This document shows, one piece after another, positions 16,441 to 50,895 of a stretch of DNA of 64,000 nt. Under the pieces are notes generated by a model. The model ran no database searches and had not been told where the DNA came from. It saw only the letters and a program-made list of their open reading frames with translations. A program made the position numbers and the translations under genes. Within the stretch, counting starts at the first letter, position 1; each line of letters opens with the position of its first letter. Source of the stretch: Lama glama (lineage: Eukaryota); the NCBI GenBank assembly GCA_028534125.1, contig CM052820.1, positions 50,964,001 through 51,028,000 of the forward strand, in the 5' to 3' direction.

Positions 16441-16624
16441 ACTGATTGGATCTAGAATTTTTACTGCGGCCAGGCTCCCATCTCTCTTGTTAGTTACTTT
16501 GTAGACCTTGCCATAGGTGCCTTTACCTATGGTCTCTATAATTTCCCAGGTATTTGTAGGATCTGGAAGTGACTCAAGTCCAAGCATTGTGGGGTTGTAA
16601 TGAAACAATCCATACAGATGTTTC
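16441..16624 (-). CDS. MYO3B: MYO3B exon 2 (kinase Gly-rich loop and catalytic Lys)
   Basis: ccaccag|G AAA CAT...ATC AGT|gtaagt; 184 nt; [61 protein letters not shown]. Confidence 0.97.
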
Positions 16625-27270: not shown

Positions 27271-28149
27271 CTGTTGAACAAATAAGAAATCTCTACAGAG
27301 GAGATTATTCTGGCCCAGATGCATGCTGAATATATGCAGGAACAAAAACCACATGAAGGTGTGGAAGGCCATCTTGGGAAGAAAAAGAAAGCCGAGATAG
27401 AAAAAACCAAAAGGACCATGCTTGGGGAGGACTGGCGAGGGGGTGCACTACGAATTCTGTATCCAGGCCCTCTGAGGCCTGCTGAGCTTTGCTGCCTATC
27501 CTTCAAAATCCATGAAACTTCCTACTGCATTCTTTTAAAAAAGCTCGCCTTTCCACAAGGCATTTTAGTCCCTAACAGGCTGGTTTTAGTTCCTAACAAC
27601 CCAAAGGAGCCCGGCCCTCACCCTAACTGAATACCCTGCATTATCCCCTAAATGAATGGCCTGCATTATCCCACAGTGGAAGTACAGCCTTACCTTGCTG
27701 AAAATAAAGCAATCTGAAGCTCGTACCCTGTGAACTCCTGTGGTCAGTCATGCCTAGCGAGTATGACTTAAATAGAAACTTGTCCAGCAACATTTTATAC
27801 TAGTGAGAGAATTCATGATGAAGATTTCCATTCCTGAGTATGTTACTCAGAATATTTTGTCTAAATGTTATAGTATGTTCTATATGAATCACAAATCATA
27901 AAAGAATGATTTCAAAGCTAGAGAACAGCTTTTAAAAAGAAATCAGAAAAGTGAACAGTTAAAGTTCAGAGGAAATTCAGTACAAATATTAAATGTAATG
28001 AGTAACCAGAGATACAAAAAGGTAAAAAACACAGACTACATAGGCACGAACAAATTAGAGAATAATTCTAAACTAACATATAAACAAGTACACAATACAG
28101 TGGCAAAAGCTGCTAAGAGACTAGGTCCATTTGTAGGAACTGGTTTCTT

Positions 28150-34086: not shown

Positions 34087-34419
34087 GTCACCAAGCTATA
34101 TCACAGATCAAACTAGAAAACCATCTGATTTCATCATTGAGGGCTATATACTGAAGGGAAGGAAATCTTTAAAATTTACAAGATTTATCCTAACAAGTTC
34201 TAAATCACTTCATTAGTATGTAACTAATAAATAAGCACTTTTTATTAACAATCAATGTCCAGTTAGCATTATTCTAAAAATATATTCCTGAATCCAGATA
34301 CCTGTCACCACTGCCACCAGAGCCACCACAGCCCCTAAGGAACCTTCTGGGCAAATTAGAGAAAGGACTCCTTATCACCTCCGTTAGGCAGACACTTCCA
34401 ACAGGACACTACATGCAGC

Positions 34420-34995
34420 CCCGCTACCTCCTCCTCCAGGGTCCAAGTCACCCGGTCCCCTACCCAGACCACAGTCACGGCCTCCCCTCCTGTCCCGGCT
34501 TCTGTTCTTGCCCCGTTCCCAGCAGTCAGTTCCCCACACAGCTACAAACAAGATCTTTTTAAAAGTTACACAAAATGTCACTGCACTTAGAACAGGATCC
34601 CACCTTCTCCCACTACGGCCCACAAGGCCTCTCACTGCCTGGGGCCTTCTCGAACTCTCGTCACTGGCGTGCCGCCCCCGCCACCTCATCACCTCGCTGA
34701 ACCCGCCACGTCGTCACCTGGCTGTCCCCACGGCACCCGGAGCTCGCCCCCCTGAGAGGGGTCCCGGGCGGCTCCCCCAGCGGAAAGCACCCCCCACTCC
34801 ACCCCCGAGAGGCAACGCGGCAACCTTCCCATCACCCAGGGCCCTGCTTGCCTAGCTCATCCTCAGAAGAAGCTTCTGGAACTATCCGGTTTATTGCGGT
34901 TCCCCAGGGGTGAGAAGCAGTGTGCGGGACGGGCCGGGGTCCGGGGACGATTCACGCTCAGAGGGACAGAGGACAGAGTTGGCACAGGTGTGACG
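34420..34995 (+). mobile_element. CpG-enriched L2 remnant overlapping the CpG island
   Basis: Ordered L2 landmarks: CCAAGTCACC, TTCCCCACACAGCTACAAACAAGATCTTTTTAAAA, GGCCCACAAGGCCT, GTTTATTG, TTGGCACAG. Confidence 0.55.
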
Positions 34996-35420
34996 AGGAA
35001 GATGGCCGCTGCCTTTTGCGGGGACGCCTGAGCGGCGGAGGTGGGCGTGGGGGGGGCACCTCCTGCAGAGCCCAGCGCAGCCGCAGAGAAAGTGAACAAC
35101 CAGTTCTTTTGCTTTTCAACGGTTGAGTCTTACCTGAGACCTCCGAGGGAGCAGGGGATGACCCGAGGTGGGGGTGGGGGTGCGACAAGGGTGGGAGGGG
35201 GCGAGGAGGCGGGAAGAAGCCGGGGTCCTACCCGGAAGGCGCCCCCTCCCGCGCCAGGCGGGCTCGCCGCGACCCGCCCGGGGGCTGCTGAGCGCCTGGG
35301 CCCGGCGGCTTCTAGAGAAGGAAAAACCAGGCCTTTCGCATCTGGGGTGGCGGAAAACGCTCTGAACCAAAACCCGGGAGACCAGGTCTGGAGCGGCGGG
35401 CTTGACTTCCTGCGATTCTG
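34590..35420. promoter_or_regulatory. CpG island, probable alternative MYO3B promoter
   Basis: The only extended GC- and CpG-dense tract in an otherwise CpG-depleted window; GC-box-like motifs; minus-strand donor CAG|GTAAGA at 35134/35133. Confidence 0.8.
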
Positions 35421-36365
35421 CCAAATCTCTTAAGCCTCTTCACCTCTTTGTGCCTCAGTTTTCTCATCTGAAAAATGAGACGGTTGAACTAATCACTGTT
35501 TTCCAGAGTTTGTTCCAGGAAACACTCACGGTACTGGCTCAAACCCAGAGCTGCTGATACAGAATCTCCAGGGCAGAAGCTGGACACTGGCATTTGACAG
35601 AGCTCCCTAGACAATTCCAGTGATTTCTAGGTTTATCTCTAAGTTCCCTTCCCCAATGTTCTATTAATTTTAAACCTTAAAACTGTACAAATGCCGGGGG
35701 TAGGGGGCTAGAGTCACGGCATAATTGAATTTATCTAATATCGTTCAAATTGACCTTACCAAATCACAAAGCAGTCACGATGTCACAGTCACTAAGGAAC
35801 AATACACACCCACAGCTATGACAAATGATTAACTAAGTGATCAGATTTTTCACTTCCTCACCCAACTATGGGGAAATTTATCTTAGCTTTAGCTGCCTTA
35901 AACCTGAGTGAAATACATTAAAAGCAACTGCAAATTACTGATGACTAATGCCCTCCAATTTGACCTCAAGCTGAGAAATTCCACGCAGAAATAAAGTGGT
36001 TTATAATCCCACAGGTCCGTTCTGTTATAAACTGCAAGTGGCAAACCAGGTGGCTATGAACTATTCTCCGTGTGTGTGTGTGTGTTGTGTGTATGTGCGT
36101 GAGAAAAATCAGTGTTCAAGGAGGGTACTTCTACACTCCTTAAATGGGAATTTAACAGTTCAAACAAAAGGCAGATGCTAGTCTTGACAACCCAGGAATC
36201 TGGATGGCACCTGACAAGGGCCTGAGGCTAGAATGTCTGTCATCCCCCACCTCCCCCGCACCCTGTCACCTGCCCCCCAGCCAGGGCAGCTGCACCTGCC
36301 CTTTGCAGAAAAGCAATCAAGAGCAAGCACATAAGAAAGCTGGAAAGAAAATAACTGCAACTCAC

Positions 36366-36367
36366 AT
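36366..36367 (-). CDS. MYO3B: MYO3B probable exon 1, coding part (AT of a split ATG)
   Basis: Minus strand reads GGTCATCAAT|GTGAGT, a strong donor. Exon 2 begins G-AAA-CAT, so the junction gives ATG AAA CAT CTG = MKHL, the MYO3B N-terminus as I recall it. Intron 1 would be 16625-36365 (19.7 kb). The 5' end of the exon is not defined. Confidence 0.8.
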
Positions 36368-37040
36368 TGATGACCTATTTTCTGAATCCGGCTTGTCTGA
36401 GGTTGGATTGTCATCCCGCCCCAAAAAAAAAAAAACAGCCGAACACTTCAGGCCCGGGAAATGGCGTCTTTGAGGAGTGCCTGGGCCAGAATGTATGACA
36501 CCTTGTCACCAGAGGACTTTCTTCCGACCCAGGTTCCAAGTGGTGTTAGCCTGTCAGGGCTATTGTGGGAGCAGCTAATAAATCTACCAAATCCTTGGGG
36601 GCACTTCACTATTAGCCAAGATTAACGTGATGCTAATTGGTAGTGAAACTGATCTAGTTAGCGTCTCCTACCAGCATAAGCAGCAAAATCAAAACCATCC
36701 TCCCAGGCTCCAAGTGCACATCATGTAATATTTCCAATGTTGTATTCCCCCAACTTCTGGCTGTAATGCCCCTTCATTCCAGACACTGCACAATCAAACT
36801 AATCATCTTTTCCTGAGTCAAGAACTCAGTCGAGGCCTGCACACAGGTTCACTTTACTGAGCTGTAGTTGCACCTGGGGGGAAATGCCATGCAGTTCTGA
36901 TCTGAATTCCTAAAGAAAGAAAAATGACTGTTCAACAGCATTCACCACCACACTCCGGGCTCTGTGCAGAACCCTGGGCTAAGAGGAGAGGGCAGGAGCT
37001 AGGAATAGGACTGCCATTCCAATAACCCTGGATTAGCTGG
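36368..37040 (-). promoter_or_regulatory. Exon 1 5'UTR and putative proximal promoter
   Basis: Non-repetitive sequence 5' of the exon 1 donor; contains TTAATCT (36619-25), CAATTAG (36633-39) and CTAATCC (37030-36) on the minus strand. TSS not determinable. Confidence 0.45.
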
Positions 37041-48460: not shown

Positions 48461-50895
48461 CTAAATTCTACAGCAATCTGTAGACTCAGCGTAATCCCTA
48501 TCAAATTACAAATGGCATTTTTAAAATAGAACTGGGACAAAAAATGTTTAAATCTGTATGGAAATACAAAAGACCCCAAATAGTCAAAACAGTCTTGAGA
48601 AAGAACAGAGCTGGGGGAATCGTGCTCCCTGGCTTCAGGTTATACTACAAAACTACAGTAAGGTAGTAGCACAAAACAGACACACAGACCAATGGAACAG
48701 GCTAGAAAGCCCAGAAATAAACCCATGCAGTTATGGCCAATTAATCTATAACAAAAAAGGAAGGAATATACAATAGAGAAAAGATAGTCTCTTCAATAAG
48801 TCGTGCTAGAAAAACTGGACAGCTACATGTAAAAGAATGAAACATTCTCTAACACCATATACAAAAATAAACTCAAAATGGATTAAAGACCTAAATGTAA
48901 GACTGGATACTATTAGGCTCCTAGAGGAAAACAAAGGCAGAACACTCCTTGACAGAAATCACAGCAGTTTTTTTTTTTTGAATCCCTCTCCTAGAGTAAT
49001 GGAAACTAGAGCAAAAATAAATAAATGGGATCTAATTAAACTTAAAAGCTTTTACACAGCAAAGGAAACCATAAACAAAATGAAAAGGCAACCTATGGAC
49101 AGAAAGAAAATATTTGCAAACAATGTGACTGACAAGGGATTAATTTCCAAAGTATATAATCATACAGCTTAATATATAAAAAAAAATACAAAAAAAGCCA
49201 ATCAAAAAATGNNNNNNNNNNNNNNNNNNNNNNNNNNNNNNNNNNNNNNNNNNNNNNNNNNNNNNNNNNNNNNNNNNNNNNNNNNNNNNNNNNNNNNNNN
49301 NNNNNNNNNNNNNNNNNNNNNNNNNNNNNNNNNNNNNNNNAGTCAGAATGACCATCATTAAAAAGTCTACAAATAATAAATGCCGGAGAGGGTATGGAGA
49401 AAAGGGAAGCCTCCTACATTGTTAGTGGGAATGTTCATTGGTGCAGCAACTATGGAAAACAATATGGAGGTTCCTTTAAAAACTGAAAATAGAATTACCA
49501 TATGATCCAGCAATCTCACTCCTGGGCATATATATGGAGAAAACTCTAGCTCAAAAAGACATATATACTCCAATGTTCATAGCAACACTATTAATAATAG
49601 CCAAGACATGGAAGCAACCTAAATGTTCATCGACANNNNNNNNNNNNNNNNNNNNNNNNNNNNNNNNNNNNNNNNNNNNNNNNNNNNNNNNNNNNNNNNN
49701 NNNNNNNNNNNNNNNNNNNNNNNNNNNNNNNNNNNNNNNNNNNNNNNNNNNNNNNNNNNNNNNNNNNNNNNNNNNNNNNNNNTGAATGGACCTAGAGATT
49801 ATTATACTAAGTGAAGTAAGTCAGACAGAGTAAGACAAATACCACATGATATCTCTTATGTGTGGAATCTAAAAAATGATACAAAAGAACTTATTNNNNN
49901 NNNNNNNNNNNNNNNNNNNNNNNNNNNNNNNNNNNNNNNNNNNNNNNNNNNNNNNNNNNNNNNNNNNNNNNNNNNNNNNNNNNNNNNNNNNNNNNNNNNN
50001 NNNNNNNNNNNNNNNNNNNNNNNNNNNNNNNNNNNNNNNNNNNNNNNNNNNNNNNNNNNNNNNNNNNNNNNNNNNNNNNNNNNNNNNNNNNNNNNNNNNN
50101 NNNNNNNNNNNNNNNNNNNNNNNNNNNNNNNNNNNNNNNNNNNNNNNNNNNNNNNNNNNNNNNNNNNNNNNNNNNNNNNNNNNNNNNNNNNNNNNNNNNN
50201 NNNNNNNNNNNNNNNNNNNNNNNNNNNNNNNNNNNNNNNNNNNNNNNNNNNNNNNNNNNNNNNNNNNNNNNNNNNNNNNNNNNNNNNNNNNNNNNNNNNN
50301 NNNNNNNNNNNNNNNNNNNNNNNNNNNNNNNNNNNNNNNNNNNNNNNNNNNNNNNNNNNNNNNNNNNNNNNNNNNNNNNNNNNNNNNNNNNNNNNTGTGT
50401 GTGTGTGTGTATACACATACATACACAATGGAATATTACTCAGCCATAAAAAAGAATGAAATAATACCATTTACAGCTACATGAATGGACCTAGAGATTA
50501 TTATACTAAGTGAAGTAAGTCAGACAGAGTAAGACAAATACCACATGATATCTCTTATGTGTGGAATCTAAAAAATGATACAAAAGAACTTATTTACAAA
50601 ACAGAAATAGACTCACAGACACAGAAAACAAACTAATGGCTCCCAAAAGGGAAAGGAAGGGGAGGGATAAATTTGGAATTGGAGATTAATGGGTATACAT
50701 GACTATGTATAAAAATAGATAAACAAGAAGGACATACCATAGAGCATAGGGAACTATATTCAATATCTTGTAATAACCTATAATAGAAAAGAATCTAAAA
50801 AGAATATATATATATATATGATTGAACACTTTGCTGTACACCTGAAACATTGTAAATCAACTATACTTGGACAAAAAATTAAAATTAATAAAATT
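48461..50895 (+). mobile_element. 5'-truncated L1 (degenerate ORF2 C-terminus plus 3'UTR), spanning three N gaps
   Basis: ORF2-like peptides ([34 protein letters not shown]) broken by stops and frameshifts; TSD ACAAAGCAAAA at 48450-60 and 50896-906. Confidence 0.92.
49212..50395. other. Assembly gaps
   Basis: N runs at 49212-49340, 49636-49782 and 49896-50395 (exactly 500 N). Confidence 0.99.

Follow-up and report, generated by a model that had tools for sequence, protein, structure and literature searches.

An overlapping upstream open reading frame in a predicted first exon of llama MYO3B

Among human MANE 5' UTRs, 42.5% contain an upstream AUG and 15.0% an overlapping upstream open reading frame (oORF; PMC11057154), a class that is depleted genome-wide through purifying selection (PMC7889888). 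An overlapping upstream open reading frame (uORF) and the main open reading frame are mutually exclusive, the latter being reached via leaky scanning (PMC10275272), and overlapping uORFs repress and can yield N-truncated products from a downstream AUG (PMC3486843, PMC10275272). In TP53BP1 a uORF shifts initiation downstream (PMC10193022), and where a weak annotated start is followed by an in-frame AUG, ribosomes often initiate at the latter with no uORF involved (PMC7397870).

Two further arrangements bear on uORFs that end beside a start codon. The AUGA overlap is a known stop-start arrangement (PMC5972666, PMC10275272), and a 29-codon uORF in the cellular gene SLAMF1 overlaps its start and carries a TURBS-like word (PMC5972666); an overlap of one nucleotide is described as likely to preclude ordinary reinitiation at the overlapped AUG (PMC5972666). 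Reinitiation is said to work best at 80-90 nt, yet it was measured over 42 nt for p53 (PMC6614817), and in CEBPA the long and short isoforms are controlled by a 6-codon uORF that ends 7 nt before the long-isoform AUG (bioRxiv 2023.01.16.524343).

The uORF and the split start codon

The window, a stretch of 64,000 nt of the Lama glama genome (contig CM052820.1, positions 50,964,001 to 51,028,000), had been given a sequence-only reading in which a uORF in the leader of MYO3B ends on a TGA shared with a splice-assembled start codon. We could confirm the host gene, as the exon 2 peptide matches mammalian myosin-IIIb (90-98% identical to most mammalian matches, best 98%), with exons 3-6 at about 15.7, 6.4, 6.0 and 3.4 kb of the window. 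The geometry was likewise borne out provided that 36366 is joined to 16624, a junction taken from protein homology (models in which a start codon split by an intron is followed by lysine, written M/K below) and from splice consensus. The uATG at 36414-36412 on the minus strand opens a frame translated as MTIQPQTSRIQKIGHQ up to the donor CAAT/GTGAGT (the slash marks the exon end, 36366). Joined to exon 2, this frame meets TGA directly after its sixteenth codon, and ATG AAA CAT (MKHLYG...) begins one base earlier; with the intron retained, the frame extends to 78 aa.

The uATG lies 47 nt 5' of the start of the coding sequence (CDS), in its -1 frame and thus out of frame, and is the sole uATG within 60-140 nt 5' of the main ATG. 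In the predicted spliced form the TGA occupies positions +2 to +4 of the CDS, and no in-frame stop lies wholly inside the leader. An upstream, out-of-frame AUG whose stop overlaps the CDS places the uORF, in that spliced form, among the oORFs. Its context (GGCGGG-ATG-A) had been called good and is better described as moderate, since it has G at -3 but A at +4. The context of the main ATG (Met1) is weak, as had been claimed (-3 T, +4 A), and the ATG at 16587 is in frame (Met14). An additional ATG at 16613, formed by the Tyr-Gly codons of KHLYG, lies between Met1 and Met14, where it would capture ribosomes that leak past Met1 or rescan. The coordinates of these and other features are collected in Table 1.

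Table 1. Features of the MYO3B 5' region (window positions unless stated otherwise; a slash marks an exon end)
Feature	Position	Strand	Remarks
Upstream coding exon pair	L002:6822-6816 + L002:6662-6617 (contig 51034822-51034617, outside window)	-	intact
TAAT/ATTA homeodomain-like word cluster, putative promoter	36579..36637	-	4 in 200 bp vs ~0.8 expected
T13 tract just 5' of uATG	36423..36435	-	without effect on uORF frame
uORF, 16 codons (MTIQPQTSRIQKIGHQ) plus T of TGA	36366..36414	-	uATG 36414-36412, -3 G, +4 A
AT of split main start (36367-36366) plus donor GTGAGT	36360..36367	-	best-scoring donor in 36000-37000
CpG island, intron 1	34251..35750	.	0.6-2 kb downstream of donor
Alternative upstream exon end (LQIALFSAR; donor AAG/GTAAGG)	27694..27719	-	same phase into exon 2 in horse, pangolin, primate models
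MYO3B exon 2: G completing ATG, then KHLYGLFHY... into kinase N-lobe	16441..16624	-	
Out-of-frame ATG in uORF frame	16611..16613	-	-3 T, +4 G; 9 nt past uORF stop; opens 25-aa ORF
In-frame ATG (Met14)	16585..16587	-	-3 A, +4 C; 35 nt past uORF stop

Comparison of the genome with its own segment 36300-36700 returned one match only. Three runs of N (49212-49340, 49636-49782 and 49896-50395) are far from the uORF. Repeats derived from tRNA, including a tRNA-Ala(AGC)-like sequence, occur near MYO3B and resemble a camelid SINE.

Alternative first exons and the putative transcript carrying the uORF

Sorted by regular expression, the N-termini of the 120 listed homologue models, which are annotation models and not expression data, comprised 38 of the MAAASEVSS type, 20 starting M/K, 10 of the MLQIALFSAR type and 52 others. 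The M/K start, shared by the curated human sequence NP_620482.3, requires a donor exon ending in AT. The stretch from the upstream exon pair to exon 2 contains eleven sites of the form AT/GTRAG; the one at 36366 has the highest local CpG count among them, and its donor scored highest in its neighbourhood with a simple custom matrix. From its sequence, the exon ending at 36366 is likely the AT/G exon of MYO3B.

The sequence-only reading had taken this exon to be exon 1 of the gene. Its part as the AT/G exon probably stands, but a second, intact pair of coding first exons skips the uORF altogether. This pair lies 34 kb 5' of the uORF. It begins with a 7-nt coding stub (ATGGCAG/GTAAGG) in strong context (-3 A, +4 G), with no uATG in the 150 nt preceding its ATG, and continues after a 153-nt intron into a 46-nt exon whose acceptor is a tandem CAGCAG. 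Together the two exons encode MAAASEVSS..., in frame with exon 2. The same N-terminus was found in bat, pig, rat and marmot models, and similar ones (ASEVSS/AENTAS-type) in birds, reptiles and frogs.

A further exon, ending at 27694, matches the MLQIALFSAR models of horse, pangolin, primates and rabbit. Its llama counterpart is without an in-frame ATG in the region 27694-27793, which may reflect a lineage-specific loss or an assembly error. This exon ends in AG, not AT, and its -1 frame runs through the exon 2 junction without a stop; out-of-frame ATGs at 27793 and 27751 on the minus strand open ORFs of 62 and 48 aa that overlap exon 2. Separately, the N-terminus of a badger model derives from a region matching 34617-34513, and the CpG island may hold a further start. 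At about 93.0-93.4 kb (L004, window-extended coordinates) we additionally found matches to N-terminal exons of the hippo and sperm whale MYO3B models, one of which has an in-frame stop in the llama genome. This map of alternative MYO3B first exons is a more useful by-product of the analysis than the uORF itself.

The existence of an intact, strong-context start upstream raises the possibility that the uATG is absent from any meaningful share of mRNA, either because transcription starts 3' of 36414 or because the AT/G exon is minor or unused in the llama while the MAAASEVSS promoter dominates. The uORF would then be translationally silent, and the fact that the AT/G exon is one of eleven candidates would agree with this. 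We nonetheless regard silence as rather unlikely. The human NP_620482.3 and 19 other listed models begin M/K and need an AT/G donor exon, and the donor at 36366 is the best of its kilobase, stands beside a CpG island and is the most CpG-rich of the eleven candidates. Furthermore, a leader of under 47 nt, as a start site 3' of the uATG would imply, would be short. The cluster of TAAT/ATTA words upstream of the uATG offers a weak hint, from sequence, of a promoter signal. Ten of 22 sequencing runs held part of 36340-36640 (one of them RNA on record, with a share of 0.18, and five with a share of 0.89); these shares were not counted as evidence.

Chance expectation of the overlap and searches for orthologues

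Both the shared stop and the ATG-TGA of the unspliced RNA had been presented as special, splice-made features, which our analysis does not uphold, as a Met-Lys start and the donor consensus GTRAG suffice to produce them. Any start of the form ATG-A holds a TGA in the -1 frame regardless of the sequence upstream, and among 119 matched homologues (matched by regular expression from 120 listed, one being unmatched) residue 2 was K in 113, T in 3 and R in 3, so that a codon with initial A (K or T) is present in 116 of the 119. Thus, the Met-Lys start forces a stop in the -1 frame, and with it the ATGA overlap. Likewise, placing AT before GTGAG, GTAAG or GTAGG invariably gives Met-stop, and we rejected the unspliced ATG-TGA as a design feature because it follows from the donor consensus after AT. 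The 78-aa unspliced ORF was rejected in the same capacity; it would presumably sit in nuclear pre-mRNA with a 19.7-kb intron.

A uORF ending on such an ATGA is also frequent in random sequence. It arose in 19.7, 21.1, 26.7, 25.1 and 19.7% of dinucleotide-shuffled leaders of 60, 100, 140, 200 and 300 nt, respectively (5000 trials each), and in 564 of 2920 random 100-mers from the window. Among the eleven AT/GTRAG sites only that at 36366 is preceded by an ATGA-ending uORF, which is within chance (about 2 expected) and is no argument against function. This random-sequence null overstates the survival of oORFs in real leaders, because oORFs are under purifying selection (PMC7889888).

We consider it somewhat probable, from the sequence, that this out-of-frame overlapping uORF, situated in the leader of a single predicted first exon of MYO3B, is incidental; its ATGA overlap follows from the Met-Lys start. 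The word incidental is based on the chance rate. A weak Met1 followed by an invariant Met14 counts against it, because such a layout has been linked to real downstream initiation (PMC7397870).

Searches for orthologues of the exon were made mostly in microbial or protein-only collections, so that their blanks say little on conservation of the uATG. A pattern scan of metagenome contigs for orthologous exon 1 DNA gave 19 loci, with best alignments of 23-29 nt that are essentially the pattern itself, and 2 bacterial genome-contig and 73 viral-contig loci, none aligning at E<=0.01. Among longer proteins there were no candidates for orthologous ORFs of the uORF-frame or main-frame leader translations, and no N-terminal extension in the homologue set could be placed on the 36.4-kb exon at E<=1e-3. 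One representative-protein match to a leader frame, a 999-aa repeat protein with 14 residues matched, was taken as spurious. In one protein recorded under Pasteurella multocida, mammalian MYO3B exon 2 (95% identity) is joined to unrelated sequence, which is probably host contamination of that record.

In the literature we found no report linking MYO3B with a uORF or upstream open reading frame, at the level of titles and the opening of abstracts for the MYO3B leader. MYO3B was absent from the supplementary files searched of PMC11057154 (3 files), PMC7889888 (11 files less one zip) and PMC7397870 (8 files, file 1 excluded), none of which appeared to be a complete gene-by-gene catalogue of uORFs. 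Occurrences of 'AUGA' in PMC10193022 were dismissed as a precedent for the overlap, the string being a codon label there.

Predicted effects on initiation and comparison with described systems

The scanning rules suggest what an overlapping uORF of this kind would do, on the premise that transcription starts upstream of 36414. Part of the scanning 40S pool would initiate at the moderate uATG, translate 16 codons and terminate at the TGA overlapping Met1. The terminating subunits would be unable to start there, as they would already cover Met1 without having had time to acquire a new ternary complex. Recycling would remove most of them, and the smaller part, resuming scanning, would restart either at the out-of-frame 16613 or at Met14. 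Full-length protein from Met1 would require leaky scanning past the uATG and then initiation in a weak context. On balance, the AT/G isoform would yield less protein, with a tilt towards a form 13 residues shorter with its kinase intact, while MAAASEVSS-start transcripts from the upstream exon pair would be untouched. Judging from these sequence features, the uORF belongs to an ordinary class; it would probably repress one isoform mildly and may move some initiation to Met14.

The diversion of ribosomes to 16587 proposed in the sequence-only reading thus stands in part. The in-frame ATG is present, but the out-of-frame ATG at 16613, which had been missed, comes first. Repression of Met1 with diversion to Met14, as in known overlapping uORFs, is plausible for any mRNA that includes the uATG. 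Met is found at the Met14 position in all 119 matched vertebrate homologues (120 listed), and database models of mouse, sheep, dog and vampire bat start there. A Met14 product would keep the kinase, because human MYO3B has the first Trp of its kinase N-lobe at residue 27 and the start of IGKGTYG at 33, both downstream.

These features would also suit a selected switch of the C/EBP type, in which the uORF is retained because it masks the weak Met1 and passes ribosomes on to Met14, and so determines the ratio between protein with and protein without a conserved 13-residue N-terminal segment. A short uORF of 16 codons, a weak Met1, a better-context Met14 35 nt past the stop, the invariance of Met14 together with the four models that start at it, the resemblance of the layout to CEBPA and TP53BP1 and the p53 measurement over 42 nt all speak for selection. 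However, the same geometry is expected from chance, the ATG at 16613 would intercept rescanning subunits before Met14, and conservation of Met14 may serve the residue itself or leaky scanning from Met1 without any uORF; the protein collections yielded no orthologous ORF, which is weak evidence. We therefore think such a switch unlikely. A fuller version is improbable: a mammal-conserved uORF, whose stop exists only after exon 1-2 splicing, acting as a promoter-specific switch that shadows Met1 and feeds the invariant Met14, so that photoreceptors or hair cells make MYO3B with or without the 13-residue pre-kinase segment, and the upstream promoter makes only the extended form.

The suggestion of coupled termination-reinitiation fared worst. 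Ribosomes that finish the uORF would move back by a single base and begin again at Met1, as happens at viral AUGA/UAAUG stop-starts, and the proximity asked of a TURBS stop-start (about 20 nt or overlapping) is indeed given by the AUGA, although this overlap is forced by Met-Lys. The TURBS core UGGGA (motif 1) is absent from the 154 nt upstream of the uORF stop. A CGGGA 52 nt before the stop, overlapping the uATG, matches it at 4 of 5 positions, but is paired inside a stem and not exposed in a single-sequence fold prediction. The review that describes SLAMF1 calls its mechanism undetermined and states that the cellular cases tested are without a TURBS (PMC5972666). Coupled reinitiation is, in our view, very improbable.

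As it stands, the uORF is of little consequence, as uAUGs occur in about 42% and overlapping uORFs in about 15% of human 5' UTRs (PMC11057154) and the overlap is forced. Were it conserved and active, it would explain N-terminal proteoforms of a sensory-cell myosin kinase, and the 5' UTR would be worth variant checks.

Among described systems, the calicivirus and influenza B TURBS share with MYO3B the AUGA stop-start overlap (PMC5972666, PMC10275272), but there the overlap comes after a long coding ORF, and reinitiation depends on a UGGGA motif 1 that paired motifs 2/2* expose. At MYO3B no UGGGA is present in the 154 nt before the stop, and single-sequence folds place the CGGGA word inside a stem. 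The long isoform of SLAMF1 is similar in having a short cellular uORF with a stop that shares bases with the main AUG (PMC5972666); it differs in its UGAUG, where the AUG follows the stop, and in its TURBS-related word, whereas in MYO3B the AUG begins one base before the stop and only CGGGA is present. In CEBPA, too, a short uORF ends beside the first of two in-frame AUGs (bioRxiv 10.1101/2023.01.16.524343). The CEBPA uORF, 7 nt from its AUG, is conserved in length and spacing and experimentally tested, whereas that of MYO3B is a prediction from sequence; a start at Met14 would cost only 13 residues, and an out-of-frame AUG stands in between.

The closest likeness in kind is to the mammalian oORFs or VuORFs, with a uATG out of frame and no stop inside the leader (PMC11057154, PMC3486843, PMC7889888), predicted competition with the main AUG, and possible N-truncated products from a downstream AUG. 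MYO3B differs from these in that its overlap is the 4-nt minimum and that its stop comes together only on splicing, since an intron divides the main ATG as AT/G, a distinction that makes no difference to the ribosome once the transcript is spliced.
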